Shown here in pieces: positions 3,340 to 54,595 of a stretch of 64,000 nt of DNA. The first letter of the stretch is position 1, and each line of letters opens with the position of its first letter. The notes beneath the pieces are model-generated. The model worked only from the letters and a program-made list of their open reading frames with translations. It was not told the DNA's origin and did not search any database. A program made the translations under genes and the position numbers. Source of the stretch: Eledone cirrhosa (taxonomy: Eukaryota); the NCBI GenBank assembly GCA_964016885.1, contig OZ024740.1, forward strand, positions 70,866,001-70,930,000, in the 5' to 3' direction.

Positions 3340-3417
<78 letters not shown>
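3340..3417. repeat. (GATA)n microsatellite between Tx1 copies A and B
   Basis: Direct reading. Confidence 0.97.
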
Positions 3418-3656: not shown

Positions 3657-6600
3657 CTACAAGCTGATATAGAGAGAAGGCCCATTCACTCAGGCCATTT
3701 TCGCCACTTTCACCCACCTTTCATAAAACTTGCTGGGGTACAGCACCTCTCTCTCCATCTTGATTCTTCTTCCAAAGTGGTATTTGAAAAAAAGAATCAG
3801 TTGTTGGCCGGAGAGAAAGGTGTCTGACCTCAGCCCTTTTAACCTCGTCCACCACCTCTTCCATACAACCACCTCGTCCATACAACCTCTTTCGCCATAG
3901 CTATCACACAAAGGAAAACCGCCTCTCCTTCGTTTTTGAAGGAGGGTGGAGGTTTGATCATGACAATGGACTCGGTGGTCAACCGGGTTGGTCCCACCCG
4001 CGACAATAGTCGTTCTACATAGCCCCACAGGTCGGTAACGCCCGGGCAGTGTACGAATGCGTGCGCGATGGTTTCTTCGTATCGCACGCATCTCGAACAG
4101 ATCTTTTTCGAAAGGTCCCTGCCCGGGCGCCCATGTTTGTAGAGCTTGTCTCGAACTGGTAGAGCTCCTCGATAGCACTGCCAGGCCAGGGACTTTTGGA
4201 AGTTGTCTATCGGTCCCGGTCAGAAGGTTCTACCGAACAGACTAGCCAGTTCGTCTTTCTCTACGCCTAGAGTTTCTCCGAGCGCGTCGTCGCACTTGCT
4301 GCGGACCAACCCTCTATAGAATGACGAAGTGGAGTCTCCGCTGATCGCCGGGTCCGCCTGCCAGAGGGCTGTAAGCGCCTGAGCACATTCGATGTGCCAG
4401 TCACCCATTGTCCTCGGTCTTTGCTTGACCCAGGACTGCAGCTCGGTCAGCGAGACGAGTCGTGGGAAGGCTCGCCTCACGAACGGGGCCCATACCGGTT
4501 GTCCGGTGAGGAATACGTGGCGGTGCCGCAGCCTGAGCGCGTGTTTGCGCATCGTCAGCCACGGTATCCCGGCCCTCCGCCTAAAGGGTGTTGGCAGCAG
4601 ATGGATCTTCTCACCAAAGGAGCCCGTTTCTTCCAAAGGAATTGGAAGAGCGCGCGCTCCATTTTGGTGAGAGTTTTGGCTGCACAAGGCACGACGGTCA
4701 AGCGGTAGTAGATGACGGACGCTATAAAAGTGTTCGCCACCTCCGCTCGACCTTTCAAGGATAGTTTGCACTCGGCCCACTTCTGGGTGAGCGCAAACAC
4801 CTTGGTCGTCACCTCGTTCCAGTTCTTCTCCACCTGGAGGTCCGGACCAAACCAGACCCCGAGCAGCTTTACCGGTCCTTCCGTCCAGCGTCCGACGACG
4901 CCATCGGATCGCATCGGTTTGCCTCTCCACGATTCGAGTTGCAAACCGACGGACTTGTCCCGGTTCAGCTTCGCTCCTGTGAACCTTTCGTATTCCTTCA
5001 GTAAGGTGCCGACTTCCTCGATTTGCGAGGTGCTCGACACCATTACTGTCACGTCATCGGCGTAGGCCGACGCTGCTTTCCGCAGTCTCGGTTGTAGAGG
5101 GATGCCCTGCAATAGCTCCAACTTCCGCAGTAGTGGCTCGAGAGTCAGTACGCACAGAAGGGAGGAGAGAGGGCATCCCTGTCGGATGGATCGCGTGATA
5201 TGGAACGGCTCCGAGAGGTAGCCGTTCACCTTGACCCTTGAACAGATGTTGCTGTTGTGCATTGCAGCAATCCAGCCCCTGAACACGGGTCCGAAGCCTG
5301 CCGCCTCGAGCACCGCATCCAGGTAACGATGGTCAACCCTATCGAAAGCCTTAGACTGATCCAAGTTGATCAGGACCCCACCGAAGCCGGGTTTACACCC
5401 TACCCTCTCTATGAAGTATCGCATGAGGTGGAGGTTGTCGTATATGGACTTGGTCGGGATTGCGCATGTCTGCGCTTCTCCCACCAGGTTTTCGACGACA
5501 AGCGCCAGCCTCTTTGCCAACACCTTCGCCAAAATCTGTAACTCTGTGTTTAGAAGAGTTATGAGCCGGAAGTTGCCTATGTCATCCTCCTTATTCTCGT
5601 CCTTCCTGACTAGTGTGACTACGCCCCTGGTCACAGAACTGGGAATTCTCCCGTTCTGCTGCCAGTTGCAGTAGACCGCTTCCAGGAGACCGGAGAACAA
5701 GTCCGGCATTGCTACGTAAAATTCGTAGGGTAGACCGTCGAGACCTGCATTGGCTCAGCGCGTCCCCTATCTCAGCGGCTGAAATCGGCTTTTCGCAGAA
5801 CTTCTCCTTGCTGTCCGAGAGTCGCGGTAGGCCGTCGAGGTATGGACCGAAATCCATAGCCCCTCCCGGCGCGCCGCCCTGCCCGAACAGCTGAAAGGCC
5901 GCGCACATCTGCTTCGGCTCACGTATCACGCGTCCGTCTTGGTCCGTCAAAGACCGAATCGTGGACTTGTTGCCACTTTTCGCCTCCGTCACCCGGGCCC
6001 GGCTAACAGCTTTGGCTCCCTCGTTACCCAGAGCACGTATTTTGCTTCTGACAACGCAGCCCTCGTGCATTGCGTCGAAGAACTGGTCTAAGGCCGTTCT
6101 CGTTGCTAGCACGCTGGCTACGTTCCCACTTCTAATTGCCTCTTCTACTTTATCTACCAGTTCCTTCTCGGTCCTATTTCTATCTAACGCTAATTCTTTA
6201 CTAAAAACTAACGAGTCTAATCTAACTGCCCTCTTGAGAGAGTACCACCATCTGTTGTTGACAATGGCCCCTGTCAAGTGCTGTTTAACTAAAGTGCTAA
6301 TCCGTCTACTGTAGGCTTTGCATGTCGGTAACGACAAGTTCAGCTTCCAGTAGCCGGGTCCTTGTCTATGGGTTCTATCAAGGTTGACCATGCAGGTCAC
6401 TAGTTTGTGGTCTGAATAAGCAACCATGAACATTTGTGGACAGCTTAACATGTCCCTATTCTTATTTCTAACTAGAACCCTATCTATGTACGATCTAGAT
6501 GTTCCGCTAATATTAGTCCACGTCCTCAGTGGCACAGTCGGAAAATCTATTCGATATCTATCGGCCAGGTCAAATCGGCCGATTAACTGTTTGAGGCTGT

Positions 6601-7079
6601 TACACCCCCCCCCCCTTTATCGGGACATGCTCCCACATAGTCTCAACGTGCATCTAGGATTCCATTCCAGTCCCCCACTAAAAGCAAGGAGCGGGACGTT
6701 CCCAGAAAAGTCTCTAGACGTTTGAAGAAGTCTGGCCGCGGTGTCCCGGATGGAGCATAGGCGGCCAGAAGGCTCCACCTTCACTACCGTCAACATCTAG
6801 GACCACCAGTCGACCCTCCTGGTCTAGATGTACCGTCTGTGTTACGAGGTCCAGGTGTTTCCGCAGCAAAACGGCAACCCCGCACCCACCTCGCGGCTGA
6901 CAGAGAGATGCGTAGATCTCAAAGTCGTCGAAGATGGGGGCCAGTTGTTGCTCGCTGTGAATCCCGGACTTGCAAATGGCTACTACATCCATACTGTGCG
7001 ACCTGAGGTCGTTTAAAAGTTTGCCCTGTTTCCAGGGCAGCCCCAGGCCGCGTACACATCCAACTCTTATATTGGCCAT
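3657..7079 (-). pseudogene. Copy B ORF2 (APE endonuclease + reverse transcriptase), several frameshifts
   Basis: MANIRVGC, SDHKLV, LDQSKAFDRVDH, RQGCPLS, AYADDV, ETIAHAFVHC motifs. Confidence 0.92.
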
Positions 7080-8821
7080 ATTGGTGCTGAAAAGTTAAAA
7101 GAAGAGGAAAAGAAATCACTCACCTCTTTGTCTCCTGGGGACCAGGCTGCACGATTTCTATGGGGGTGTTGGAGGGGTTGTCTGGGTGGGTGGTGGTTTC
7201 CGGTGGGGTGGGGATGGAGATGTTTGGTGGGGAGGGGTGTCTGGTGGGGTAGGGTGTCTGGGGTGAGGGTGGGAAACATTTTAAAAGGACGCGGTTAATG
7301 GGTTTAACACAGGGATTACCCACGTCCTTAGGAAAGTTTTCCTTTAAAGACTTATAGGTGTCCGTAGGGAGCCTAATCATCTTTAAATTAGGTCTGTCTG
7401 CACAGTTCGAAAAGTTTTCCCTTCGGTTTTCACCGAAGGGTCGTGAGAGATGACCTCCATTAAAGTTTTGTTTTCACTGTTTATGTATGTGTAATGTTCT
7501 TGTTGTGTTGCGGTGATTTTTGTCTGTTGTTCCTGTGGGAGCTTTCGTTTTGTTGTAGGTGTTTGTGTTTGGAGTGATGTCGTGGTTTTGTTTTCGGGAC
7601 GGGGGGGGGTTGTAATGTTTGTGTTGTTTGTGTTGGGGGTTGTATGTTTGTAGTGACGTTTGTTGCTTTTTTGTTTTCTTGTGGTGTCTTTTCTTCTTTC
7701 TTTTCGAACGGAGAGGCTCTCCTTCATCGTCACTTGGTGATGATGACGGGGCCTCGTCCGTTGTGGTGTATGTGTTATTTGGAAGGGGTATGTTTTGGGG
7801 AGCTGGTGTGTTTGTGGGTGTTTTGCAGTGGTTTTAGGTGGAGTTGGGTTGGGTGGGACTGTGCTTGCAGTTTGATTTGTTGTTCTTGTTTTGGTTATGT
7901 TTGCGTGTTGTTGTTGCTGTTGTTGTTGTTGTTGTTGTGGTGGTGGTGGTGGTGGTGGTGGTGGTGGTGGTGGTGGTGGTGGTGGTGGTGGTGGTGGTGG
8001 TGGTGGTGGTGGTGGTGGTGGTGTTGTTGTTTGGGGTGTTGGCAGTAGTGCCTCTTTTTTTGCAGCTAGCTGAGGACAGTAAGCCTTCAGGTGACCACTG
8101 CTTAAACAGTGGTAACATGAAGGCCGCCGACCCTCAACAGAAATGTTTATGTATGAAATCCCATCCAGAGGCACACGTTGGGGTATTTTAGCTATCCGTT
8201 CTGGCCTCATTTGGAACAGAACTTCCAGGCTTGTACCATTGAATGTGCCTCTGGAGGACTTTCCCATTGCAATTATTGTGTCTTCATCGAAATCGATGAG
8301 GCCAGTCAAAATCCACCAGACGTTTACGTTTGGTGTAATATTTGAAATTTTAATTTTTGGGGTTCTTTTTCCCATATATGTGGGGGAAAAGGTGTAAAAG
8401 GGGGACACAATTGGCGACACAGAATATGTTTGTGCATTCAATTGGTCTTTCATCAGCACCGAAATGCTTCCAAAAAGTTTACCTTTTTGGATGAAGGCAA
8501 TATCCTTCATTGATTTGTTCAAAACCAGTTCAATTTCGTTTTGGGATAATTGGACTGGTTTTTTAAACACATTTGAAACTGTCCTAAAAATTATTGTTTT
8601 TAGGATAGTTTCTCGACGTAACTGTTGAGGAGAAGTGATGCTGAAAGCACCACTCTCACCAAAAGTTACATAGTGCTTTGCTTCTTTCAACAACTCCCTA
8701 GCATTGGAGATGTCTCGATATGTAAACAGTTCCGTCTTTTGGACGGTTTGTGCAAAGGAAATCTTTTCCTTGTTTGTGGAGTTGTTCGTGTTGCTGTTGT
8801 TGTTGGTGGTGTTGTTGTTAT

Positions 8822-8852
<31 letters not shown>

Positions 8853-8942
8853 CTTGTTGTCATGATTGTTGTTGTTCTGGTTGGTGTTGTTCACATTTTT
8901 CATGTTATTGGTGTTGGTGTTACAATTAACGTTCGACAACAT
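7067..8942 (-). pseudogene. Copy B ORF1 (gag-like), frameshifted, with in-frame poly-Asn, poly-Pro and poly-Gln tracts
   Basis: CYHCLSSGHLKAYC knuckle; QMRPERIA and VEGRRP motifs shared with copies A/C. Confidence 0.85.
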
Positions 8943-9272
8943 GTTTTCAAAACTGACGATATTTTTAACGTCTTTCAATGAGGTGTTGAGTGGAGATGAC
9001 TGCGAGCTTAACACTCTCACCGCCTCTCCACCACTTCTAGTACTGGACTTAATGCAAAATTTTGTTTACAATTTTTCACCGAAAAAATTTTTTCAAACGA
9101 AAATTTCACCCCAGGAAGGGGTGAAAATGAGTTGACCCACCGTCTGAAGGTCCAGACGTGGGGTCAAGCTATAAAATAGTATCAAATTTAACAATAATTT
9201 TTTTGATTTCTTATGTAGAAAATCAACAAAAACTTACCAGTGAACTGGCACGCGTCTATCGAGATGAGAGAG

Positions 9273-12700: not shown

Positions 12701-12980
12701 TGAATATCAACAGCCAGAATCCGTAGACAAACAGATGCAAGATGATTGGTAGCTGTATCTACCGGAAGTTTATTCCACAGTGTGCTCGCAGGAAAAGAAA
12801 TATTAGTAGCTGTATCAACCGAACCGCGGGTTTTTTCCAGATAAATAAATAAGATAAAATTAAATTTAAATAAAATAATTATTTTAAAGTTTTAAAGTGT
12901 TTAAAAAAACATGCGTGCACAAATAATCCCACACACACCCACATATACATATTTACACACCCACAAAATATGCACACGCT

Positions 12981-13152
12981 ATCAGATGGCCGTTGAAGCT
13001 TATGAGTTCCTCCGCTTTTTGTCATGCTTTGTTTTTAATCCCGCAGGGTGTTCAAAACCACTCTCCTCGCCAAGCAAGCTTAGTGGGGTTGCCAGTTGAG
13101 TCACCGACGACCCGACCATGTGACAGGTTGCACTGAGTCAGAAGCGACTTCA
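12981..13152 (-). mobile_element. Diverged 5' fragment of the (TATG)n-associated RTE-derived element
   Basis: Homologous to the head of 15389-15991 (catggtcgggtcgt...actggcaacccca); preceded on its own strand by (TATG)n. Confidence 0.75.
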
Positions 13153-13398
13153 CATACATACATACATACATACATACATACATACATACATACATACATA
13201 CATACATACATACATACTACATATACACGTGTATAGATACAAAACATGCACGTGAACACATATAACTCAAAGCAGACAGACCCACACATGCAATAACATC
13301 CATACCTGCACACACACATGCGCGCGCATGCACGCACGTACGCATGCAGACATACACATACATACATACATACATACATACATACATACATACATACA

Positions 13399-13768
13399 TG
13401 CATAGTAGCTGCCAACTCGTTTTCGAGTACGGCCACTACTTTATATCCATGTAGGAGAACCCCTACCGATGCGCTGAACGAGTGTGACTTTTTAGTCCAG
13501 CCAGCGACTTGAAAACTCTGGTACAAACACTACACTTGTGACAATTATTGACACATAGTGCTGGGCCCATGGTACCATGTGACGACAAGTGCAGAGAGAT
13601 CTCCAGATATAAAGCAATGCCTGTGCCGTGAAGCTTTTATAGTGAGCAAAGGCACTACACAAAGCCAGTCCCACTCTCTTAACCAAGATGATATTTACCA
13701 AAAAGAAGAACAAGTCAACATCATTTGATACCATCAGGGTTGCAGGTGTTATATCAGAGTTTTCCTTC
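13399..13768 (-). mobile_element. RTE-derived bipartite non-autonomous element, 5'-truncated copy
   Basis: Near-identical to 15389-15991 and 53469-54032; (TATG)n on both sides. Confidence 0.85.
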
Positions 13769-13826
13769 ATACATACATACATACATACATACATACATAC
13801 ATACATACATACATACATACATACAT

Positions 13827-15290
13827 CGCAATTACAACCGTTGTACACAGTGGACCTACGAGTCCAAGTGTGCATATTTGGCAGTAAAACGTGGAAGAGC
13901 TGTGCCCTCCTCTAGAAATCTAGAGATGAACGGCCTGACAATACAACCTCTGCAGTCAGGTGACAACTACAGATATCTTGGACAGGATGAGAATGTCAGA
14001 TATGATGGACCCATAAATAAGGAGAAAACCAGAACTGAATACCTCAGAAGAGTAAAGAAAATATGGTCATCAGAACTGTCAGCATACAACAAATACATTG
14101 CCCACAATACTTATGCTGTGCCAATTCTAACGCCAACATTTGGCCTACTGAACTGGTCATTGCAAGAACTAAGTGAGATGGATGTTAGAACTCGAAAACT
14201 TCTCAGTGTTACTGGGAACTTTAACATCAATGGTGATGTGGATAGGCTATACTTCTCACGCAAGGAAGGTGGCCGGAGTCTAAAATCAATATTAACAACA
14301 TATGAGACCCGGATAGTGACACTGAAGCAACACCTTCAACAGAGGAAAAAGGTTGGCAACCATCTTGCCCAGGTTTATGACCATGAAAAAAGAAATATCA
14401 TTAGAATAGCGACTGATCTGGAGGAGAGATATGGAATAAAGCCCGATATAAATCTCTCACCCAGAGAAATCGGAAGATCCTATTCAATGTTCAAACAAGA
14501 AAAAAAAATTGACCAATTTATAGAAAAAGTTGTGCATGGATACTTGAGGCGTAAAACACAGACCATAGAGGGGATAAACCACTCAAAAAGCCTGGCATGG
14601 AGTTCCGACAAGTTTATGACATCACACCTTGAGGGATATCTCTATGCAATACAGGAACAAGAACTCCCTACCAAATATCTGCTGCACAAAAGAGGAGGGC
14701 CAGCAGCTGACAATAAATGTAGGCTATGTAAAACAAAGATCGAGGATGTAAGCCACATTGTTGCCAGCTGCGAAAGAATGTCATCTCGCTACTACCTCCC
14801 CATGAGACACGATGGGATAGCTAGAACCATCTGGAACGCACTTCGGAAAACAAAATTAACAACAAACGAGGAAGAATATATTGAGACAGATGGCACTAAG
14901 GAATACTGGTGGAACCTGAAAATAAAAACTGCCACCAGATTAAAGCACAACCGGCCTGATATTGTAGTTTGGGACCACACATTGAAAACGTGTTCTGTTG
15001 TGGAGATCAGCTGCCCACTTGATGTAAACGTTGTCAGAAAAATACAGGAGAAGGAGGACATCTACGGACCATTGATGAGGAGTTTACAAATCCAGTATCC
15101 AAGATACACCTTTAGCTTCATACCCATCATTATTGGTGCTACGGGTTATATACCAACCCGCTTGGACCAAAGTATGACTGAACTTGGATTTGCGGACAAA
15201 AAGCGCAGCTCCCTAATTCATAGTCTACAAATGGCTGCGATAGCTGGCACCTTCAAAATTTGCAAAACATTCTTGCGTTTCAAGGGATGA
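13827..15290 (+). CDS. RT C-terminus/thumb + CCHC Zn finger + restriction-like PD-(D/E)XK endonuclease (N-terminally truncated)
   Basis: YRYLG, DRLYFSRKEGGR, CRLCKTKIEDVSHIVASC, RHD, RPDIVVWD..VEISCP..KEDIY; no internal stop. Confidence 0.88.
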   Translation, partial: RNYNRCTQWTYESKCAYLAVKRGRAVPSSRNLEMNGLTIQPLQSGDNYRYLGQDENVRYDGPINKEKTRTEYLRRVKKIWSSELSAYNKYIAHNTYAVPILTPTFGLLNWSLQELSEMDVRTRKLLSVTGNFNINGDVDRLYFSRKEGGRSLKSILTTYETRIVTLKQHLQQRKKVGNHLAQVYDHEKRNIIRIATDLEERYGIKPDINLSPREIGRSYSMFKQEKKIDQFIEKVVHGYLRRKTQTIEGINHSKSLAWSSDKFMTSHLEGYLYAIQEQELPTKYLLHKRGGPAADNKCRLCKTKIEDVSHIVASCERMSSRYYLPMRHDGIARTIWNALRKTKLTTNEEEYIETDGTKEYWWNLKIKTATRLKHNRPDIVVWDHTLKTCSVVEISCPLDVNVVRKIQEKEDIYGPLMRSLQIQYPRYTFSFIPIIIGATGYIPTRLDQSMTELGFADKKRSSLIHSLQMAAIAGTFKICKTFLRFKG

Positions 15291-15371
15291 CAATTTCTTT
15301 TCTTTTACAACCTTGCCACCAGGAAGGTGGCCGGTCAAAAAAATATACTCAAAATTAAGAGAAAGAGAAAA
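13827..15371 (+). mobile_element. R4/Dong-like RLE non-LTR retrotransposon, 5'-truncated, inserted in (CATA)n
   Basis: Open frame to 15290, short 3' UTR, (CATA)n at both junctions. Confidence 0.9.
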
Positions 15372-15388
15372 CATACATACATACATAC

Positions 15389-15991
15389 ATGGTGGCTGCC
15401 AACTCGTTTTCGAGTACGGCCACTACTTTATATCCATGTAGGAGAACCCCTACCGATGCGCTGAACGAGTGGGACTTTTTAGTCCAGCCAGCGACTTGAA
15501 AACTCTGGTACAAACACTACACTTGTGACAATTATTGACACATAGTGCTGCTCCCATGTGATGACAAGTGCAGAGAGATCTCCAGATATAAAGCAATGCC
15601 TGTGCCGTGAAGCTTTTATAGTGAGCAAAGGCACTGCACAAAGCCAGTCCCACTCTCTTAACCAAGATGATATTTACTAAAAAGAAGAACAAGTCAACAT
15701 CATTGGATACCATCAGGGTTGCAGGTGTTATATCAGAATTTTCCTTCTCCTAGAATTCTGCCTTGACAAAGGCTAAGGGGTCATCTCTCCCGGTGATTTT
15801 GGATGGCCATTGACTCTTAAGAGCTCTTTTGCCTTTTGACAGGTTTAGTTTTTAGTCCTGCAGAATATCCAAAGTCACCCTCCTCACCAAGAAACCTTGG
15901 TGGGGTTGCCAGTTTAGTCGCCAACGACCCGACCATGAGACAGGTTGTACTGGGATACATGTTACCAGTAGCACCAACTGGTGACCTGACA
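15389..15991 (-). mobile_element. RTE-derived bipartite non-autonomous element, full-length copy (~600 bp)
   Basis: Non-coding head (TCAGGTCACCAGTTGG...) joined to a 3' end matching the zinc-finger LINE fragment at 52599-53059; (TATG)n on both sides. Confidence 0.85.
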
Positions 15992-16015
15992 TACATACAT
16001 ACATACATACATACA

Positions 16016-16047
<32 letters not shown>

Positions 16048-16211
16048 CATACATACACATACATACATACATACATACATACATACATACATACATACAT
16101 ACATACATACACACATATATACATACATACATACATACATACATACATACATACATACATACATACATACATACACATATACATACATACAGACACACGC
16201 ATATACATACA

Positions 16212-16247
<36 letters not shown>

Positions 16248-16346
16248 TATATATACATACATACTTATACATATATACATACATATATACATACATACAT
16301 ATACATACATACATACACATATACATACATACATATATACATACAC

Positions 16347-16382
<36 letters not shown>

Positions 16383-16560
16383 ACCTACATATACATATAC
16401 ATATATATACATACACACACATATACATACATACACATATATACATACATACACATATACATACATATATATATACATACACACATATACATACATACAT
16501 ATACATACATACATACACATACATACACACATATACATACATATATACATATACATACAT
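15992..16560. repeat. Degenerate (TACA)n/(TA)n microsatellite
   Basis: Direct reading. Confidence 0.95.
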
Positions 16561-17116
16561 ATGGTGGCTGCCAACTCGTTTTCGAGTACGGCCACTACTT
16601 TATATCCATGTAGGAGAACCCCTACCGATGCGCTGAACAAGTGTGACTTTTTAGTCCAGCCAGCGACTTGAAAACTCTGGTACAAACACTACACTTGTGA
16701 CAATTATTGACACATAGTGCTGGGCCCATGGTACCATGTGACGACAAGTGCAGAGAGATCTCCAGATATAAAGCAATGCCTGTGCCGTGAAGCTTTTATA
16801 GTGAGCAAAGGCACTGCACAAAGCCAGTCCCACTCTCTTAACCAAGATGATATTTACCAAAAAGAAGAACAAGTCAACATCATTGGATACCATCAGAGTT
16901 GCAGGTGTTATATCAGAGTTTTCCTTCTCCTAGAATTCTGCCTTGACAAAGGCTAAGGGGTCATCTCTCCCGGTGATTTTGGATGGCCATTGACTCTTAA
17001 GAGCTCCTTTGCCCTTTGACAGGTTTTCTTTTTAGTCCTGCAGGATGTCCAAAGTCACCCTCCTCACCAAGAAACCTTGGTGGGGTTGCCAGTTTAGTCG
17101 CCAACGATCGACCATA
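16561..17116 (-). mobile_element. RTE-derived bipartite non-autonomous element, slightly 5'-truncated copy
   Basis: Near-identical to 15389-15991. Confidence 0.85.
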
Positions 17117-17322
17117 TACATATATATACATACATACATATACATACATACATATATATACATACACATATACACATACATACACATATACATATACATA
17201 CATATATACATATATACATACATATATATACATACACATATACATATGCATACATATATACATATACATACATACACACATATACATACATACATACATA
17301 CATACATACATACATACATACA

Positions 17323-17354
<32 letters not shown>

Positions 17355-17878
17355 CATACATACATATATACATACATACATACATACACATATACATACA
17401 TATATATACATATACATACATATATGCATATACACAGATGTACATACATACATATATATATACATACAGATACATACATATACATATACATACATACATA
17501 TACATACACATATACATATATATACATATATACACATACATATACATACATATATACACATATATACACATACACACATATATATATACATATACATACA
17601 TATACACACATATATACATACATACATATACATACATATATACATGCACATATACATATACATACATATACATACACATACATATATATATACATACATA
17701 TACACATATACATACATACATATACATACATACATATATATACACACATATACATACATACATACATACATATACATATATATATACACATACACACATA
17801 TATACATATACATACATATATATACATACATACACACATACATATACATACATATATACATATATACATATATACATA
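17117..17878. repeat. Degenerate (TACA)n/(TATACA)n microsatellite
   Basis: Direct reading. Confidence 0.95.
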
Positions 17879-18860: not shown

Positions 18861-18965
18861 AACAATTTTTGACACGCTATATCCATATCCTTTTGATATA
18901 CTTCAGATGCATGATGGTATTGATAATGTTTAACGAAACGTTCATTGAACCAAATGTAATAATAA

Positions 18966-19141
18966 TTCTTTCTACTTTAGGCACAAGGCCAGCAATTACC
19001 CAGTGCATTACTGGTACTTTATTTTATCGACCCCGTAAGGATGAAAGGCAAAGTCAACCTCGGCGGGATTTGAACTCAGATCGTAAAGGGACGTAACTAT
19101 GCTGGAAAGCATGGCGTCCGACCCTCTACCGATACTGCCAA
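18966..19141 (-). mobile_element. tRNA-derived SINE (octopus-type)
   Basis: A-box-like TGGCAGTATCGG, B-box GAGTTCAAATCC, core GCCTTTCATCCTTACGGGGTCGATAAAATAAAGTACCAG; many copies in the window. Confidence 0.8.
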
Positions 19142-20060: not shown

Positions 20061-20214
20061 AAAAAACCATAGTTGTGAGGTTAAGGCGTTCACTTCGTAA
20101 CAAGCTGGCTCTGGGTTTATTTCCGGTGCGTAACACCTTGGGCAAATATCTTCTACTATTGCCTTGAGTTGATCAAAGACGGAAACTGCAGAAGCCCGTC
20201 GTATATATAACAAA

Positions 20215-20313
20215 GAAAGTGTGGTAAGGAACCATGTGGACCATAACGCACCAGAGTACTCGATACTTAGGGTAGTAGAGTGGGTAATAAGAAAAGAGTC
20301 AGGACCCCGACGG
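20215..20313 (-). mobile_element. Short (TA)n-associated repeat, 3' fragment of the fold-back family
   Basis: gtggtaaggaacca.gtggaccataacgcacca.agtactc shared with 30890, 40240 and 45886. Confidence 0.75.
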
Positions 20314-20344
20314 CTATATATATATATATAAATATATATATATG

Positions 20345-20411: not shown

Positions 20412-21879
20412 AATGTACGAAGCCGAATTTTCGGCTTTCTAAGCGGTAAGAATATAAAAGTATAAAGAAAGTGCTTAAGCATAGAAATGCTGTAAAGAAA
20501 GCTTATAAAATAGGGTGAAAACCGTTAAAAGAATTTTCCAACGAGCGCTATCAGGAATTGAACTACATATCATCCAGATAGCGGCTAGAAGTCATCTGGA
20601 AGATATGGTTTCAATTAATTCCTCATAGCGGTCGTTAGTAAATTCTTTTTCTGTCTTTTAAGGGTCTTCATCCTATTTTATAAGCTATCCCTATAGCATT
20701 TCAGCGCTTAGGCACGTTCTTTATACTCATATATATCATTAGTTGTTTGTAGGGGAAAATAATATTAAAAGTATATAAACATGAAAATAATTAAGTAAAT
20801 AAAGTAAATATTCGTCTTTAATAATTGATAGAATAACCGAACCCGATATCAAACGATGTAAAATATTTAAGCAAATCCATACGTAAGTGTAAAGTAGGTA
20901 AGACCATAAATATTCCAAAGGTAAATATTTATAATATATTAATAATATAACTTTAAAAAAAGGTTTGAGTATTCAAACAATCACGGTGGTTGAGTGGTAC
21001 AACTGCTGGTTACATAATTGTATAATTACTGATTTTAAATGGAAAAGACTGTTCGGAGTTCCATCTCCTCGCGCCCATACGAAGAAGACTTCTGTTTCTC
21101 GTTTTGCAACTGGAAGGTAGAAGTTTTGTGTATCTGACAATAGCGATGCATGGTATTGCTGGCCATAGGCAAGTCCCTAGCAGGACTGAAAAGCCACCTC
21201 CGTGATGCTCATGCTTAAGTATCAAGCGATGGCATTACTCGAAATCAAGTTGCAGTCATTATCATCATATATATATACATATGCACACACACATATATAA
21301 ATAGATATGTATGTATGTATATTAAGTGTTAAAGCCCGAAGCTCATTACTATTATATTGTGGATGTGCATATTTCACAAGATCTTTTTTATTGGAGAAGG
21401 TAAGAAATTCTTAATATATTCTATAATCCGTATTTTTACTTTACAATTTCACGGTCAATTGCATACACAGAAATAGAGAGGACTTTTTTAAAATGTTATT
21501 TGTTCGATACAAAAATTGAATGATAGTATTGTAGTTGAGGGTGGGCCCCTTTGTCTCATCATGGCAACCAATATTTTTAGACCTAGTCCGCCAATGTATA
21601 TATATGATGTATATATATACGTGTGTGTGTTCGTATCTGTGTTTACGGTTGTATGTATCCCATAACCTAGCGGTGCAACGAGGAAGTACTAGACTTGAAA
21701 AAGTGAATACTGAGGTCTATATTATCGACTAAGTCGAAGCAGTGGCGCAGTCTACTGACTGAAATAAGTAAAACTAAAATAAAATATATAGTATAAACAC
21801 TGAATGAATAGATGGCTGGGTCAATGACCTGTGAAAGACTGGTGCAAAATTACGAGAATTACAGAGGCTGACTTTGGAG

Positions 21880-22980
21880 GAGTGATGCTAAAGCTGTGAA
21901 GTCTTTAATGCATTAATTTCAACTCTTCTTATTAATATCTGCATTGTTCTTTTCCAGGTAAACTGGCATCTGACTGATCAAAGAAGACTTTAAAAGTAAC
22001 TAGTAGCCACTTCTCTTGAAAATGGACAAAATTTGTCATCGTGGTGTTATCAAGTACCTGAAGAAAAAAGGTTTACTGCCCCAAGGAATTCATGCTGACA
22101 TGGTTGCTACATTATGAGATGATGCTATAGCCTTATCAACAATGCAAAATTGGGCTGCTGAATTTAGGAGGGGAAGGGAGAGTCTTGAAGATGACCCAAA
22201 GCTGGACGTCCTGCAACTGCCACCACTTAGGTAAACATTGACCGTGTTCACCACATGGTGATGGATGAGAGGCGATTGACTATATATCAAATAGCCAATG
22301 CTATTAACATGTCTCATAAGAGAGTTGAGATTATTCTGCACAATAAATATGACATGACAACTGATCAAAAGCAAACCAAGCTGATCACATCACATGAAAA
22401 CCTGACATTGTTGGAAGCAGATTCAGATGGGTCCTTGAACGTTTTCTAACCCAGGATGAGTGCTGGGTTCATCACCTTGAGTCAGAGACAAAGAGACAAT
22501 CCATGCAGTGGAAACACCCCTCCTCATCTCCTCCAAAGAAGTCCAAGGTCATTTCATCTGCAGGGAAGTTGTTGGCCTCAGTTTTGGGAGATGCAAAAGG
22601 CATTGTGTTTATTGTCCATCTTCAAAAGGGTCACACCATCAATGGAGAGTACTATACCAACTTGCTGAGGCAGTTACGAAAGGCTATCAAAACCAAATTC
22701 CATGGAAAACTGACAAATGGGGTCTTGTTTCTACAGGAAAATGCTCTAGCAGACAAGTCCTTGTTTCAATGGTTGCTGTGCGTGACTGTGGCCCCATCTG
22801 ACTACCATATTTTCCCCAGCATGAAGAAATACTTGGCTGGGAACCAGTATCGCAGTGATGATGACGTCATATCTGCTGTTGGTGACCTTTCGACCAGAAG
22901 AATTAAAGCTGCTTCACCAATGGCACCCAAGTACTGCAACACCGAACGAAGAAGTGTGTGGACCGTAAGGGGGACTAAAA
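21880..22980 (+). pseudogene. Mariner transposase remnant
   Basis: MDKICHRGVIKYL, WAAEFRRGRESLEDDP, DECWVHH..ETKRQSMQWKH, SAGK, TINGEYY, APSDYHIFPSMKK. Confidence 0.88.
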
Positions 22981-23939
22981 AAAAGAATTTCGATACACAC
23001 ACACAAACAATACAAAAATGTCACATACCCATACGTGGAGAGACACATACACGCACTTACACATAAACATATATATACTCATTCGTGCAAAATCATACAC
23101 GTACGAACACATACACTAAAAAAAAACTACACAAAAAACATACATAACATACACACACATACACACATAAAACACAAAAGAATTCCGACACACGTGAAAA
23201 TATGTACATTCACACATAAATGTACACACTCACACACACATAAACAATACAAAAAAGTCAGACACACACGTGCAAATACACATACACACACTCATACTTA
23301 AACATAAACACACACTCTTATGAAAACATACTCATATACGCACGTGTATACACACACACACACACACAAACACAAACACACACACCAAAAAACACGCATA
23401 AACATACACACACATGCTTATACACCGACACACACATACATACCTATACATAAATACACACATACTTACATGCAGACAAAATAACGAAAAAAACAAACAA
23501 AAGAATTCACAGGCACACACAAACAATATAAAAGACACACAATCGCGCACATGTACACACAGACATACACACACAGAAGCAATGATGAACACCTACGGAA
23601 TTCCCCTCCTCGGCACATACATTACCACACCCGGACTCTCCTCCTCGACCCCTACTCCCAACCTTCTTAAAAACCTTTTTCCAAAATCCGATGTTCCTAC
23701 CTGTTTTCTCTCTCTCTCACTCTATCTATCTATCTTGATAGAGTAAGACACGCTTCACATCGGCTCCGCTATTCCATCAGGATTTACCCTTACTATTGTA
23801 AGTACCGGATAAATTTTTCAGTGCAACACATTTGGAACACTAACCCCTGTTATTTAGGGAAACATTTTTGCATTTACCCCCTTTTTAGGGGGTAAAATAA
23901 ATATCTATTTTTTTGCCGAAAAATTTCTTTCTTGGCAGC

Positions 23940-25788
23940 ATGGCGGAAAAGATGGCAGACATGTCTGCCATTAGCTCTGCCACGCCCCCCCCCCCCCCCC
24001 AAGTCTGAAGAACAAAAAATAATTACAACAAAATTAGACAACAAAACAAACAAGGAAAATGAAAAAACAAATGTTAAGGAAAATGAGCAAACGGAAAACA
24101 AACAAACAGAAAATAATACAAATAACAACAGGGCAACTTTCGCCCAGAAAACAAAACAATCAATAATATACACACCAATTGACTTAACTGCCGCCAGAGA
24201 AAAACTGGCCGAAGCGAAAAAACAAATAGTCTTGGGAGAACGGAATGTTTTCCATTAACTCCCCCCCCCCCCCCCAGAATTCAAGAAAGCCAGAACAGAG
24301 AGCACAGTTCTCTTCAGAACTATACTGAACCAGACAAGAAAGCCAGCACAGCCCAGCCAAATGGAAATAGAGTTGGTCCTAAAAGACTATATGAAGAATA
24401 TTCTCTTCATACGAAAGGACCGAGTCTATGGCAGCATTTCGGTCCTAACAAAAGACAAGGAAACGGCGGAGAAGCTTTCCCTAAGCCCACTCTCATCGAC
24501 AACATACAGCTTCTATCCCTCCTACATGGGTAGAAGAACACAGAGAGTAAAAGTAAAAACAATGCTGCCCACAATGGACTTCTGGTGGGCTATTGCTGGC
24601 TTCATAGACATGGGCGAAGACACAATGCTGTCAATGGGGAAGGCAACTGGAGATGCGTTCCTGGGAATGGGCCTCGACATACTAGTCCAAATGAGGCCCG
24701 AAAGAATAGCACAAATCCCGGATCGCATCTGGCTGGATGACCTTACCCCAATAGACATAATTGTAGAGGGGAGAAGACCAGCATGCTATTTATGCATGGA
24801 AAGGGGACACGTTAAGGCTAACTGCCCGAAACGTATCCCCCAAAAAGGACTATTGCCCACACCCACCACAAACAGTACACCAACACCACCCACCTCCAAA
24901 AATACACTAATACCACACACAGCAAACAAAATACAGACACCACCAACCACAAAGACAACACAAACATCACCACCACCAGCACCAAACACAAGCACGACAC
25001 AAAAATCACCACCACCAACCACAACACAAACATCACCACCACCATCACCAACCACAAGCACGACACAAACATTACCACCACCACCACAAAACCCATTCCA
25101 AACAAATAATAAAAAAAACAGTAACAAATCTACTCCTCCCGCAAAAAAACAACAACCACACAACACGTCCCTCCCACCTAGCGCTGAAGAGTTTCCCCCA
25201 ACTTCTGAAGAAGGAGGAGAAGCCTTCAGACAAGTTAAAAGAAAAAAAAGAAAACACACACCCAGCACACCACAAATAACCCACACACAAACACCAACTC
25301 CAATCAAAAACACCCCACCCTCAACAAACAAAAATAAATCTGCGCCTCCCCTCTCCGAAACATTGACAGCATCACAAAAAAAGACGTTGCAATACACATA
25401 TATAAATAAAGAAAACAAAAAACTGGTTAAATTAATAAACAATAACCCTATGGTGCAGACCGAAGGGCCAAACTTTATCTCAACAGAGAACTTCACCCAT
25501 TTAAAAATGATAAAGGTCCCTCTGGACCTTTATCGTTCCTTAAAAGAACAATTTAGACGGGATGTGAGCCCCCCCCCCTGTTTAAAACCGTTAAATCGCG
25601 TCCTCCTGAAAGATTTCCCCATAACCGCCCCTCTCCCTGACACAACTCCAAATACCCCAACCCCACCACATACGGGTACCCCCACACCACCACAAAACAT
25701 CCCTCCACCCAACACACCTGATGCCATGGAAATTACACAACCCGGAGAGGTAGGTGCTTTTCTTTCTTCACTTTCAACACCAAAATAG
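23940..25788 (+). pseudogene. Copy C ORF1 (gag-like, CCHC), frameshifts at or near C runs
   Basis: CYLCMERGHVKANC; continuous 475-aa frame 24361-25788; probable start MAEKMADMS. Confidence 0.87.
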
Positions 25789-28700
25789 ATCAATTGAGAG
25801 TTGGCTGTTTGAACGCGCGTGGCCTGGGCTCAGCTTGGAAGCAAGCAAAGCTTCTAAATGACCTCAGGTCACAAAGTATAGATGTGATGGTTGTTTGCGA
25901 GAGTCGGATCAGCAGCGTGAGACAGCTGGCACCCGCCTTCGATGACTTTGAGATGCACGCATCTCTCTGTCAACCCGGAGGCGGGGGGGGGGGTTGCCGT
26001 ACTGCTGGATAAACGTCTGGCTCTCGACGTACAGATTGTTGACTCGGACCCGGGGATCGATTACTGGTGCTGGACGTCGGAGGCGGTGAAGGCGGGGCTT
26101 TCAGACTGGTCGGTCTTTATGCCCCCTTCGGGGCGGAAAGAGCCGACTTCTTCCAGCGTCTGGAGACTTTTCTAGGAACGTCGCGTTCCCTGCTTTTAGT
26201 GGGGGACTGGAATGGGATCCTAGATGCGCGTTGGGACTATGCAGGGGCATCTCCCGATAGAGGGAGGTGTAGCAGCCTCAAGGGGTTACTCCATCGATTC
26301 GACCTGGTCGATAGATTTCGACTAGATTGTCCAACTGCGCCAACCTGGACCTGGGCAAACCGCAGTGGACAATCTAGATCGTACCTAGATAGGTTTTTGG
26401 TTAGGAGTAAGGATAGGGACGTATTTAGTTGTCCAGAATTGCTCATGGTTGGCTATTCAGATCACAAATTAGTGACCTGCGTGGTCAACCTTGATAGAAC
26501 GCATAGACAGGGTCCCGGTTACTGGAAGATGAACTTGTCCTTGCCGGCAAAGAAAGATTACAGGAACCGGATTAGTAGCTTAGTTAAGATGCGGTTGACG
26601 GGAGCGATCGTCAACAGTAGGTGGTGGGTATCTCTAAAGAGAGAGATTAGAGTAAGTTCGATAGGTTACAGTAAGGAACTAGCGGCGAATAGGAAGGAAA
26701 GGGAGTTAACAGATAAACTAGAAGAGGCGATTAGGAGCGGAGACGTAGCCAGAGTGTTAGCGGCGAGAACGGCGTTGAGCCAGTTCTTTGACGCGAAGCA
26801 CGAAGGCTGCGTTGTCCGAAGTAAAATACGTGCTTTAGGAAACGCGGGGACCAAAGCTGTTAGCTGGGCCCGCGTGACAGAAGCCAAGAGTGGGATTAAA
26901 TCCACCATTCGGTCTTTGCGAGACCAGGATGGACGGGTGATCCTTGAACCTGAGCGGATGTGCGAGGCCTTTCAAAGGCACTTTGCTCGACTGTTCGGAG
27001 GGGGAGGGGGCCGGACGGGGATGTGGACTTCGGTCCATACCTCGACGGTCTACCGCGTCTTTCGAGCGGCGAAGCGGAGTGCTGCGAAAGGCCGATCACA
27101 GCCACTGAAATCGGGGAAGCGCTCAGCCAATGCAGCAGACGCAAATCCCCGGGTCTCGATGGTCTACCATACGAACTTTATTTAGCTATGCCGGTCTTGT
27201 TCTCCGAACTCCTCGAGGCTGTCTATTGCAACTGGCAACAGAACGGGAGAATTCCCTGTTCTGTGACCAAGGGCGTGGTCACGCTAGTGAGGAAGGACGA
27301 GAGAAAGGGGGACGACTTAAGTAACTTTAGGCCCATAACTCTGCTGAATGCAGAGTTACAGTTTTGGCCAAGGTGTTGGCGAAGAGGTTGGCGCTTGTGG
27401 TGGGTGGTTTGGTGGGAGACGCGCAGACATGCGCTATCCCGTCCAGGTCCATTCACGACAACCTCCACCTCATGCGATACATCATAGAGAGGGTTGGCAA
27501 CGAACCCGGCTTTGGTGGGGCCCTGATTAACTTGGATCAATCTAAGACGTTCGATAGGGTCGACCATGGTTACCTGGATGCGGTGCTAGCGGCGGCGGGC
27601 TTCGGACCCGTTTTCAGGGGCTGGATTTCTGCCATGCACAGTGGCAACATCTACTCTAGGATTAAAGTAAACGGCTAGCTCTCGGACCGTTTCAAATCAC
27701 CCGGTCCATCAGACAGGGGTGCCCCCTCTCCTCCCTTCTGTACGTATTGACTCTCGAGCCACTGCTGCGGAAATTGGAGTTGCTGCGGGGCATACCCCTG
27801 GAACCGGGATTGCACAAAGCGGTCTCGGCCTATGCCGACGACGTAACAGTAATGGTGGCGGACGCCTCGGAAATCGGGGCGATCGCCACCCTACTGGAGG
27901 AATACGAAAGGCTGACAGGGGCTAGGCTGAACCAGGACAAGTCAGTCGGTTTGCAACTCGGAACGTGGAGGGGCAAACCGATGCCGTTAGACGGTGTCGT
28001 CGGGCGGTGGACGGAGGGCCCGGTGAAGCTGCTCGGGGTCTGGTTCGGACCGGACCTCCAGGTGGAGAAGAATTGGGGCGAGGTGACGAGCAGGGTGTTT
28101 GCGCTGACCCAGAAGTGGGCCAAGTGCAAACTATCACTGAAAGGTCGGGCGGAGGTGACGAACACTTTTATAGCGTCCGTCATCTACTACCGCCTGACCG
28201 TCGTGCCTTGCCCCAAGGAAAAGCTCACCATCATGGAACGCATGCTCTTCCAGTTCCTCTGGAAGAAGCGGCCTCCCATGGTGAGGAGATCCATCTGCTG
28301 CCAGCACCCTTCGAAAGGAGGGCTGGGTATGCCGTGGCTGTTGATGCGTAGGCACGCATTGAGGCTACGGCATCTACAGGTATTCCTCAACGGTCAGCCG
28401 GTGTGGGCCCCGTTTGTGAGGCGAGCCTTCCCACAGCTCGTCTCGCTCACCGAACTGCAATCCTGGGTGAAGCAAAGACTGAGAAAACTGGGCAACTGGC
28501 ACACCGAGTGTGCCCAGGCGCTCACGGCTATCTGGCAAGCGGACCCGACTATCAGTGGAGAATCCACCTCGACATTCTATAGAGGGTTGGTGGCTAGCAA
28601 GGGCGACGACACCCTTGGAGAGTCGCTAGGCATGGAGGAGGACGAACTGGCCAGCCTGTTCGGTAGAACTTTCGGCCCGGGACCCATGGACAACTTCCAG

Positions 28701-40411: not shown

Positions 40412-40414
40412 ATA

Positions 40415-51012: not shown

Positions 51013-51101
51013 TTATCGGCATGCATGCAGGCATGTATGTATATGTATGTATATATTTATGTATGCATGTATGTATATATGTATATATTTATGTATGTAT
51101 G

Positions 51102-51634
51102 CAACCCCACCAAGTTTACTTGGCGAGGAGGGTGATTTTGGACACCCTGCAGGACAAAAAACAAAACCTGACAAAGGGGGAAGAACTCATAAGAGTCAAC
51201 GGCCATCCAAAAGTGTGTAAATATGTATATACACATGTACATATGTATATGTGTATATACATGGGTGCATGTGTATGTATATGCGCGGAGACATAGAAAT
51301 AGTTTGGCTGAGCACCCGATCGCGCAGTTAAACCACTGGGAGTGAAGGACCCCTAGCCTTTGTCAGGGCATTCTTCTAGGAGAAGGAAACTCAGCAAACT
51401 GGGATAACTCCGACATAAAACCTGCGGCTCAGTAGTTACCGATGATGTTGATCTTTTCTTCTTTTCGGGTTATTGTTACTGTCGCTCAGAGAGTGGGATT
51501 GGCTCAGTGCACAGTCTTTCGTCACTTTAAAAAATATCTTCACGCACAGGCATTGCATGATAGAATAATTTAATAATTATTAATAATGGTATATCGTGCA
51601 ATGGCCATACTCGATAATGAAGGGGCAGCCATCA
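51102..51634 (+). mobile_element. Diverged sister family of the RTE-derived bipartite element
   Basis: Shares gcaaccccaccaag, ctaggagaaggaaac, gagagtggga and a tggcc.tactcga...ggcagcca.catg terminus; TATG-rich flanks. Confidence 0.72.
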
Positions 51635-52140
51635 TGAATGTATGTATGTATGTATGTATGTATGTTTGTGTGTGTGTGTATGTATGTATTTATGCGTGTA
51701 TGAATGCATGTATGTATATACGTATGAATGCATGTATGTGTGTACGTGTGTGTTTATGTACGCATATGTGTTTGTATGTATGTATAAATGTGTGTATCTA
51801 TATATGTGTACATGTATGTACGCAAGTGTATTTGTATGTATATTTATACTTATGCCTGTATCCATGTATGTATGGTTGTATGCACTTATGTATTTATGTA
51901 TGTTCTTCTGGTTTTATGATTTCACAAAGTAGTTTTACCAATAGAGAGAGAGTCGGTTTCTAACATAGACACAAGACTCTCTCATTGGAATTTACACAAC
52001 ATCAACTAGGTAGATATGTATGCATGTCTGCATGCATGCATGTGTAGATATGGATGTTATTGTAGGTGTGGATGTGTATGTTTTGAGTTGTATGTGTGCA
52101 TGTGTATATGCTTAGTATCTGTACATGTGTATATGCAGTT

Positions 52141-52537
52141 ATTAGATGCAAAGTTTTTGGAATGTTTTACATATTTTTACTGTCCATTAATGAATTGTAC
52201 TTGTAGTTTCCTAACTAGTTGTGTTCTTTCTGTTCCTGTGAAGCCCAGCTTTTCAAGATTTGTACTGAGGCAGTTACTAACATATCCCAGTGCCCCCAAT
52301 AATCACAGGCATAAATCTGAAGGTGTAATCAGGGTGGCGTATCTGCAGTTTTCTCATCAGTTCTGCATAAATATTCTCCTTTTCGCTAATCTTTGATATT
52401 ATATTGGCATCTGCTGGGCTGCTAACTTCCACTACTGTGCATGCCTTCTTTTCCCTGTCCCATATCATAATATCTGGTCTGTTATGCCTGCATTTTATTG
52501 GGGTTTTTACTGGGACATTCCACCAGTAATCTTTCAT
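52141..52537 (-). pseudogene. 5'-truncated R4/Dong-like RLE fragment, related to 13827-15371
   Basis: KDYWWNVPVKT..RHNRPDIMIWD..VEVSSP..EKENIY..KICKTF; 5' junction in (CATA)n-like repeat. Confidence 0.85.
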
Positions 52538-52550
52538 ATATGTATATATG

Positions 52551-52584
<34 letters not shown>

Positions 52585-52598
52585 TGTATGTATGTATG

Positions 52599-53059
52599 TG
52601 AGTCTATTTGAGGAAACAAGAAGAAGGCACGCGACACTAAAAAGATATGTCTGGAAAGGAATCCACGTTGGCCTTCTCGAAGGCACTGACAGACGGCCTG
52701 ACCTGACATGTGAGACCTGTAATAGGGTTTGTCTGAGCATGGCAGGTCTAAAGAGTCACCTGAGAGTGCACAAAAACAGGGAAGCAGGCACCTGTGGAGC
52801 TATAAGTGTTCATCAGATGACATGTAATATTTGTGGAAGGGTATGCAGGTCGAGTAGTGATCTCACACGACACCTTGGGTCACATGGTACCATGGGCCCA
52901 GCACTAGGTATCAATAATTGTCACAAGTGTAGTGTTTGTACCAGAGTTTTCAAGTCGCTGGCTGGACTAAAAATCATACTCGTTCAGCGCATCAGTGGGG
53001 GTTCTCCTGCATGGATATAAAGTAGTGGCCGTACTCGAAAACGAGTTGGCAGCCACCAT
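52599..53059 (+). mobile_element. 3' end of the putative autonomous RTE partner, encoding three C2H2-type Zn fingers
   Basis: CETCNRVCLSMAGLKSHLRVH, CNICGRVCRSSSDLTRHLGSH, CSVCTRVFKSLAGLK; last ~180 bp match the bipartite element; (TATG)n at both ends. Confidence 0.8.
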
Positions 53060-53084
53060 GTATGTATATATGAATGTATGTAGT

Positions 53085-53385
53085 GAGAGCGCGTGACTGA
53101 GTGGTTAGGGTATTTGACACACGATCGTAAGATTATGAGTTCGATTCTCGGCGGCTGGTTGTGTCCTGGATCAAGGCATGTTAATTCACGTCACTCCAGT
53201 TCACTCAGCTGGCAAAATAAGTTGTACCTGTAATTTAAATGGCCAGCCTTGTCACATTCTATGAAAACTACGTTAAGAGTACATGTGTCTGTGGAATGCT
53301 CAGCCACTTGCATGTTAATTTCACGAACATGCTGTCCCATTGATCGTATCAACTGGAACCTTCGTTGTCTTAACTGACGGTGTGT
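53085..53385 (+). mobile_element. Second tRNA-derived SINE family
   Basis: A box TGACTGAGTGG, B box GAGTTCGATTC, body ttgtgtcc..caaggca..ctccagttcactcagctg and cacttgcatgttaatttcacg. Confidence 0.7.
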
Positions 53386-53468
53386 CAGTTTATGTATGTG
53401 TGTATGTATGCATGTATATATGTATGTATGGATGTATGTATGTGTGTATGCATGTATGTATGTATTAT

Positions 53469-54032
53469 GTCAGGTCACCAGTTGGTGCTACTGGTCACAT
53501 GTATCCCAGTACAACCTGTCTCATGGTCGGGTCGTTGGCGACTAAACTGGTTTCTTGGTGAGGAAGGTGACTTTGGACATCCTGCAAGACTAAAAACAAA
53601 ACCTGTCAAAGGGCAAAGGAGCTCTTAAGAGTCAATGGCCATCCAAAATCACAGGGAGAATTCTATAAGGAAAACTCTGATATAACACCTGCAACCCTGA
53701 TGGTATCCAATGATGTTGACTTGTTCTTCTTTTTGGTAAATATCATCTTGGTTAAGAGAGTGGGACTGGCTTTGTGCAGTGCCTTTGCTCACTATAAAAG
53801 CTTCACGGCACAGGCATTGCTTTATATCTGGAGATCTCTCTGCACTTGTCGTCACATGGTACCATGGGCCCAGCACTATGTGTCAATAATTGTCACAAGT
53901 GTAGTGTTTGTACCAGAGTTTTCAAGTCGCTGGCTGGACTAAAAAGTCACACTCGTTCAGCGCATCGGTAGGGGTTCTCCTACATGGATATAAAGTAGTG
54001 GCCGTACTCGAAAACGAGTTGGCAGCCACCAT
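53469..54032 (+). mobile_element. RTE-derived bipartite non-autonomous element, full length with small internal deletions
   Basis: Reverse-complement match to 15389-15991; TATG-rich flanks. Confidence 0.85.
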
Positions 54033-54595
54033 GTATTATGTATGTGTGTGTCTTTATATATGTATGCACGCATGAATGTATATATGTACTATGTACGTAT
54101 GTATGTATTATGTATGATTGCATGTATGTATGTACGTATATATGTATGTATGTATGTATGTATGCATGTATGTATGTATGCATGTATGTATGTATGCATG
54201 TATGTATGTATATATGTATGTATGTAAGCCATTTTTTTATGTCAGGTACAAGCCGAGACAATAAACAAACAGTCAGACAGAACGTGGAAAACTCATATAT
54301 TTGAAGATTTAGAGTCGAGTTCAAAATGTCTACGAGCCTACTTGACCTTTGACCATGTTTGGTGTCAAATTAGGAAGGTAAATAATATCCGATGGGGGTG
54401 TACATTAAACAGGATGTCCAGAGATTCCACTTGGGAGTAAAAGTCAACGAAGTAACGACCATTAGCTTTTATTGTTCACTCTATTCAGGTACAGACAAAA
54501 TTGCTTACACACACACACATACATATATATATACAAGCAAACATACATACATACATACATACATACATACATACATACATACATACATACATACA

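Follow-up and report, generated by a model that had tools for sequence, protein, structure and literature searches.

A bipartite RTE-derived element and its relatives form head-to-tail chains within TATG microsatellite arrays in Eledone cirrhosa

Our analysis of a 64,000-nucleotide stretch of the Eledone cirrhosa genome (the window hereafter; assembly GCA_964016885.1, contig OZ024740.1, forward-strand positions 70,866,001 to 70,930,000) revealed a non-coding element of about 600 bp, present in four near-identical copies, whose 3' end is that of an RTE-type long interspersed nuclear element (LINE) encoding three zinc fingers. All seven family members in the window, namely these copies, two diverged relatives and a fragment of the LINE, are immediately preceded by (TATG)n on the strand that they occupy, and they make up two head-to-tail chains. 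The anatomy, the common 3' end, the flanks, the orientation and the chains are direct observations. To account for them we somewhat favor a process in which the tail of the element's RNA guides priming into (TATG)n arrays.

Pairwise identity among the four copies is 96.4-98.4%. The full-length copy (15391..15989, minus strand, 599 bp) consists of a head of about 424 nt, of the RTE 5' untranslated region (UTR) type, followed by the LINE 3' end. One copy is without the first 53 nt (16563..17115, minus) and a 5'-truncated one is without the first 242 nt (13405..13768, minus); the fourth (53470..54030, plus) has an intact 5' end and two internal deletions. An initial annotation had described a bipartite RTE-derived non-autonomous element with four near-identical copies and two diverged relatives, ending in the last ~180 bp of a zinc-finger LINE. 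This description held: the head carries RTE 5'-UTR motifs, the relatives are 79% and 85% identical to the unit, and the 3' ~180 bp align to 52879-53057 of the LINE fragment with 94.2-96.7% identity over 172-180 bp. The coordinates it used for the minus-strand copies (13399, 15389 and 16561) are their 3' ends, and the junction motif that it named is intact in three of the four copies, being broken by an 8-bp deletion at the junction in the copy at 15389.

Two published RTE 5'-UTR motifs in the head are the reason why we class the unit as a bipartite non-autonomous RTE, of a kind that this clade often produces. The first, of 22 nt, has an exact match in the RTE-derived domain of OegopSINE (PMC5786205 supplement; here and below, papers are cited for their available parts), a domain that Kojima aligned to the 5' UTRs of RTE-3_BF and AviRTE (PMC5786205). 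The second lies downstream of the 22-nt motif, in the motif order of the RTE-1_MD and MAR4_MD 5' UTRs as judged by eye (PMC5786205). The unit thus joins an RTE LINE 3' end to an RTE 5'-UTR-type head, with no small-RNA head and no coding capacity: a tRNA search found no tRNA in it, no Rfam family reached its gathering score, and its longest frame had no protein relative, with none of six candidates retained in a search for spurious open reading frames (ORFs). Ribozyme families gave no match at its 5' end even at E 10. We also tried a 5' ribozyme of the hepatitis delta virus type (a nested double pseudoknot) and rejected it, our own descriptor having 0 matches in the intact copy; its matches elsewhere lay mostly within repeats and were not common to the copies. 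The consensus fold of the head, with double changes in 1 of 27 pairs across four sequences, was uninformative.

The LINE fragment (52600..53057, plus strand) is the C-terminus of an element with three C2H2-type fingers (encoded in 52598-53017, the third broken by a frameshift) and a 3' hairpin. The Pfam zf-met and JAZ-type families also match the fingers. We take this C-terminal motif to be the end of an RTE-type ORF. The fragment carries no reverse transcriptase (RT) to place in a tree, and the label is based on the architecture of relatives, known sequence motifs and the UTR motifs. When longer relatives were sought, two of 118 candidates matched (P0001 and P0002, about 1,060-1,090 amino acids), which have an apurinic/apyrimidinic-type (APE) endonuclease, an RT and three fingers and are 36-37% identical to the C-terminus in the window; the endonuclease and RT are thus read from these proxies. 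A search of the PDB with P0001 returned only L1, R2 and generic finger chains. Among the best 150 of 785 matches of a profile-free search, we selected by eye 29 RTE-type sequences, P0001 and P0002 included. Because these align with the fragment both before and through the fingers, the three-finger end characterizes a widespread subgroup and is not peculiar to the window family.

The 3' UTR of the fragment is short, with some 40 nt after the stop codon followed by an (ATGT)n tail. Its 3' end forms a two-stem hairpin found across three families, with a double change in 1 of 10 pairs, which is likely to be a recognition signal. By eye, the hairpin region (53000-53062) resembles the tail of the squid IdioSINE2, labelled "unknown 3'" in PMC5786205, and that tail may derive from a related RTE. 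The same hairpin occurs at the 3' end of another finger-bearing RTE family (21168-21258, plus), with a CAT-like tail.

The two diverged relatives bear on the history of the unit. One (12981..13152, minus) comprises the head only, roughly the first 190 nt of the unit, and is 79% identical to the full copy over 151 bp (13135-12985). The other (51102..51635, plus) has a 5'-truncated head, a 117-bp internal extra, a short 3' end and a TATG tail: positions 51101-51212 match the unit at 85% and 51330-51562 at 69%, after which comes a short 3' end of the element's own, near 51635. This distinct end indicates a separate bipartite element with its own junction, so the internal deletion would have occurred at least twice. 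The similarity of both relatives to the young unit breaks off at one and the same position, where each runs on into TG-rich sequence that is alike in the two (12940-12980 and 51213-51253), which suggests an internal repeat in an older 5' UTR. The head-only relative is followed, some 480 bp further downstream and on its own strand, by a degraded RTE endonuclease region (12500-11056, minus), whose best segments are 41-50% identical to the three-finger relatives. We rejected it as the source of the head: its 5' region is unrelated, and 257 of 500 shuffles score as high. RTE-2_OV of Octopus vulgaris was likewise rejected as the autonomous partner, since its end primers reach at best 14/20 and 13/18 in the window, outside the element.

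Independent flanks were also sought beyond the window. A 3' motif had no exact match among genome contigs of bacteria and archaea, nothing matched in collections of phages and plasmids, and a protein scan of the bacterial and archaeal contigs gave 32 loci, none of which resembled the head. Three of the best-scoring four loci were inspected, and the two with a translated 3' end were one-finger RTEs with other tails. Eukaryotic one-finger RTEs occur on short contigs binned into bacterial genomes (L001:1-2952 and L003:1-1500), probably as contamination.

The flanks of the seven family members are strikingly uniform. The 16 nt upstream match (TATG)n at 16, 16, 16, 12, 15, 16 and 12 positions, the imperfect flanks being those at 17116 and 53469; 5 of 7 members reach at least 15/16, where the background rate is 0.7%. 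All seven members, and 2.8% of window positions, pass a filter that was built to leave out (TA)n and was fixed only after the flanks had been seen. For correct-strand positions in the host DNA of each cluster, the pass rates of this filter are 28.9% (0.289) and 16.2% (0.162), and the product of these values gives a chance of about 3e-5 for 7/7. The TATG-flanked members have five different 5' endpoints and belong to three sequence families. Co-orientation alone would have a probability of 0.008 if the insertions were independent. The TATG run touches the 5' junction itself, and therefore the whole target must presumably have been TATG; no such run would result from a short overlap between tail and target where a target-site duplication begins. 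The 3' junctions share one phase, and the 5' junctions are blurred by overlaps of 1-3 nt.

TATG is the most abundant tetranucleotide class in the window. Of 12 arrays with at least four perfect units, 8 abut chain members, 2 lie in the long flank at 17116, and 2 (54542 and 59783) have no such neighbor. In the left chain, the array at 13153..13216 is the 5' flank of the head-only relative (16/16 TATG), 13357..13404 is the tail of copy 13399, and a perfect array (13768..13826) separates the 5' end of that copy from the 5' end of a LINE of another type, discussed below. A short array (15371..15390) is both the 3' flank of this LINE and the tail of copy 15389, and a long one (15990..16562) is both the 5' flank of copy 15389 and the tail of copy 16561. 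The outermost 5' flank is a 760-bp degenerate array (17116..17878), with no RTE 3' end detected beyond it. The right chain opens with a degenerate array (51020..51101), before which no RTE 3' end was detected, continues with one lying between the 5' ends of two LINE fragments (52537..52599), and closes with the tail or array at 54031..54226.

The RTE family shares these arrays with LINEs that we presume, from their motifs, to be of the R4/Dong type. A 5'-truncated one (13827..15370, plus) has an open frame of 487 amino acids with CCHC, RHD and PD..E motifs and is bordered by (CATA)n on both sides; a match from Argonauta hians covers 35% of its protein at 66% identity. A second fragment (52040..52536, minus), with a CATA-type 5' flank, includes a frameshifted endonuclease end and a probable UTR, and is 46% identical to P0003 and 44% to the protein of the first. 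Among 52 relatives of the window protein, the RT motif was found in 50, CCHC in 47, RHD/N in 48, PD in 48 and an N-terminal finger in none, which is the R4/Dong architecture (a single ORF with RT, CCHC and a C-terminal restriction-like endonuclease, and no N-terminal fingers). The abundance of Dong-R4 elements in octopus contributes to the label, and the element types of the window match those given as active in Octopus vulgaris (PMC13282606). A CA-rich piece (13218..13355, plus) resembles the sequence just after the stop codon of the second fragment (80.8% over 99 bp, E 1e-18; nhmmer E 2e-11) and is probably, if uncertainly, an R4-type insertion made of UTR only. The strand of these elements is that of CATA, and all RTE copies have the opposite orientation. 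Each of the two coding fragments faces a truncated RTE copy head to head, with a single array between them. A third element with a restriction-like endonuclease (34800-36800, minus), degraded, only distantly related and about 30% identical to the R4-type protein, does not lie in CATA.

A short interspersed nuclear element (SINE) of tRNA-like type, present once in the window (53082..53391, plus) and with A- and B-box-like motifs by eye, also lies in the right chain with TATG on both sides. The initial annotation had proposed an RTE and its parasite that target a microsatellite, with copies truncated at different 5' points, all preceded by TATG and co-oriented with it. Within this window, on two chains, the flanks and their orientation are as it stated, and the bipartite unit and its insertion in TATG stand; what it had missed are the R4/Dong-type users of the arrays and a similar but weaker pattern in an unrelated, ATT-tailed SINE, described below. 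With these, the RTE is one among several elements that use microsatellite arrays in this stretch. Another perfect (CATA)n run is followed, at a distance of some 200 bp, by a frameshifted RT ORF whose end is GIY-YIG-like (54542-57532). We take this ORF to be Penelope-like, and it is possibly another user of TATG/CATA arrays.

A second SINE family served as a control. Ten copies of an ATT-tailed tRNA-like SINE (18957-19141, 33040-34445, 46505-46712, 49526-49638, 59181-59369 and 61554-61740) have no TATG flank (0/10), and three of them have ATT flanks scoring at least 14/16, against a background of 0.05%. By eye, five copies have an ATT flank, all in one cluster; five form head-to-tail chains in an ATT-rich cluster. 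Since a SINE with an ATT tail has ATT flanks and none of TATG, the flank appears to follow the tail in this genome, less strictly in the SINE than in the RTE family.

Tail-guided priming would account for these patterns as follows. The three-finger RTE LINE would have yielded, at least twice, internally deleted non-coding derivatives made of its 5' UTR and 3' end. By retaining the 3' hairpin and the (ATGT)n tail, these derivatives could be copied in trans by the RTE protein. Insertion would proceed by target-primed reverse transcription, with an endonuclease that nicks DNA loosely and priming that succeeds mainly where the (AUGU)n tail of the RNA pairs with a nicked (ACAT)n strand. Copies would thus land within (TATG)n arrays in one orientation, and each insertion would add a TATG tail that serves as the next target, so that head-to-tail chains would grow. 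R4/Dong-type LINEs would exploit these arrays independently of the RTE and from the opposite strand.

Several points weigh against this explanation, besides the late choice of the flank filter. The score of 12/16 reached by two members is also the raw score of a (TA)n run. The seven members amount to just two head-to-tail chains in one 64-kb window and are thus not independent insertions; the window offers no solitary copy, and neither empty sites nor target-site duplications can be read inside the arrays. The ATT-flanked control copies could be concatemers themselves. No TATG precedes the RTE 3' end of the other family at 21168-21258. Among the non-reference calls of a different octopus RTE in the available part of PMC9115989, TATGTATG occurs in 0 of 211 rows, CATACATA in 1 of 211 and (AT)n in 7 of 211, many of these insertion rows having no called duplication. 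At the protein level, two of 48 selected short hits (P0112 and P0117) have a TATG-type peptide where they open at the 5' break, which speaks for the explanation, and one ends with such a peptide, but these are protein-level hits only and the P0117 peptide may be in part diverged finger sequence. Finally, the present data fit a preference of the endonuclease as well as pairing of the tail.

This last possibility leads to a protein that itself reads (TATG)n, through its endonuclease or its three fingers, as in the site-specific R1 and Tx1, with a tail that merely reflects the target. We regard it as unlikely, on evidence that concerns the fingers. The flanks of the RTE family (7/7) are stronger than those of the control SINE (3/10), the fingers are strongly conserved, and finger 2 keeps an arginine at position 6 in 23 of 27 hits. 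However, three fingers could be matched in 27 of the 29 selected hits, and there S/T, A/G/S and G almost invariably occupy helix positions -1, 2 and 3, with linkers that span 8-25 amino acids. Canonical base-reading zinc-finger arrays, as described by the recognition code, differ from such small helix residues and long linkers, and the finger helices look ill-suited to base reading. The zf-met and JAZ-type matches also speak against this role, as does the wide occurrence of the three-finger tail when TATG-type peptides are found in only 3 of 48 selected hits.

The arrays might instead be fragile, with breaks caused by slippage or by the R4 endonuclease being patched by any retroelement tail able to pair, without the RTE endonuclease. 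The presence of R4-type LINEs and a tRNA-like SINE in the same arrays fits such repair, and so does the head-to-head arrangement of both R4-type coding fragments with truncated RTE copies. Yet the ATT-tailed SINE is never found in TATG arrays (0/10), and the RTE 3' ends are intact with their tails in the same phase, as normal priming predicts. We therefore hold break repair to be distinctly improbable. The chances of template jumping without any targeting seem slimmer still. Reverse transcriptases can pass from one RNA to the next, as in R2, and each 5' flank would then be the tail of the neighbor, which suits a set of seven copies that all belong to two co-oriented head-to-tail chains. But the two outermost flanks (17116 and 51101) are TATG with no RTE end beyond, and the chains mix families that are 15-30% apart and are interrupted by other elements. 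Multiplication of one insertion by unequal exchange between TATG arrays, with 5' truncations as later deletions, is very improbable: three young copies do lie within 4 kb and the truncation points share 1-3 nt with the flank, but local duplication is disfavored because differences among the copies are mostly private, neighboring copies being no more alike than either is to the copy some 40 kb away and the closest pair (13399 and 53469, 98.4%) lying about 40 kb apart in inverted orientation, and the LINE fragment would require a deletion of about 3 kb.

The architecture of the unit is known, and RTEs commonly have bipartite derivatives; what is out of the ordinary is how strong the targeting is. 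Bov-A, RTESINE1/2, WALLSI3, MAR4_MD and RTE-N2_Lch likewise join a part of an RTE 5' UTR to an RTE 3' end, with no detected small-RNA head and a microsatellite tail, but the 3' part of our unit is long (~180 bp, including the coding sequence of finger 3) (PMC5786205, PMC7245038). In this literature the bipartite SINE of hagfish is described as lacking a strong preference of target. Unlike the known bipartite RTEs, every copy in the window sits in an array of its own tail unit, with one target and one orientation in 7 of 7 members on two chains. A correlation between RTE tails and targets has been described by Nishiyama and Ohshima (2018), who cite Gilbert (2008) and Ichiyanagi and Okada (2008) (PMC6007223). 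It has been proposed that the 3' microsatellite of the RNA steers the site of nicking or priming, but the overlap published for animal RTEs is one or two bases, whereas at least 16 nt of upstream flank match the tail unit here; site-specific elements among APE LINEs are given only in Tx1 and R1 (PMC6007223). The comparison suggests a target preference stronger than reported for RTEs. LINEs that target microsatellites include Waldo (ACAY), Mino (AC), Kibi (TC), Koshi (TTC), Dong (TAA) and Togen (TG), and there is no RTE among those listed in the available parts of the sources (PMC3812793, PMC4640811). Waldo comes closest: its target includes ACAT, the unit seen here, and it likewise inserts within one microsatellite. 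Dong targets TAA, whereas the two R4/Dong-type fragments of the window lie in (CATA)n (PMC3812793, PMC4640811).

RTE-2_OV, an octopus RTE with one ORF, resembles the window family in having a C2H2 finger and a 3' end made of a microsatellite, but it is another family because nothing in the window matches its published end primers well; the available part of PMC9115989 mentions no target preference for it. The lepidopteran RTEs that seed microsatellite families also have truncated RTE 3' ends and simple-repeat tails but are described as not sequence-specific and as having repeats on one side only (PMC2887409). In the open literature we found no report of a TATG-targeting RTE; repeat databases and subscription papers lay outside this search, which does not establish absence from print.

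The remainder of the window, which has 39.8% GC and no N, is largely made of retroelements and microsatellites. Several two-ORF LINEs (zinc-knuckle ORF1, endonuclease-RT ORF2) of L1/Tx1-like appearance occupy 1-9065 and 23709-29210, as nested and inverted copies with 75-97% identity. Two short repeat families are bordered by (TA)n: one with an internal inverted repeat (20202-20315, 30883-31099, 40223-40417 and 45845-46090), the other at 30510-30835, 60401-60706 and 61131-61436. There is also a Mariner transposase fragment (22398-23063, plus; Pfam Transposase_1), a C-terminal RT fragment (63547-63977, minus) and a 29-bp tandem array (36852-37632) with higher-order periods of 144 and 289 bp.

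A broader proposal, which we put forward tentatively and with some doubt, is that this RTE lineage is a true microsatellite targeter whose own RNA tail determines where it inserts; APE LINEs would then have a third way of reaching specificity, in addition to those of R1 and Tx1. The lineage would build arrays that it and its parasites re-enter, an R4/Dong lineage would have given up its TAA target for the other strand of these arrays, and self-growing stacks would occur across the octopod genome. If the pattern holds genome-wide, the one-to-two-base tail effect described for RTEs (PMC6007223) would become full array targeting. It would also provide a feedback mechanism for the abundance of TATG arrays and for local hot spots of transposable elements, and an R4/Dong element that targets (CATA)n would add a target absent from the lists in the available parts of PMC3812793 and PMC4640811.

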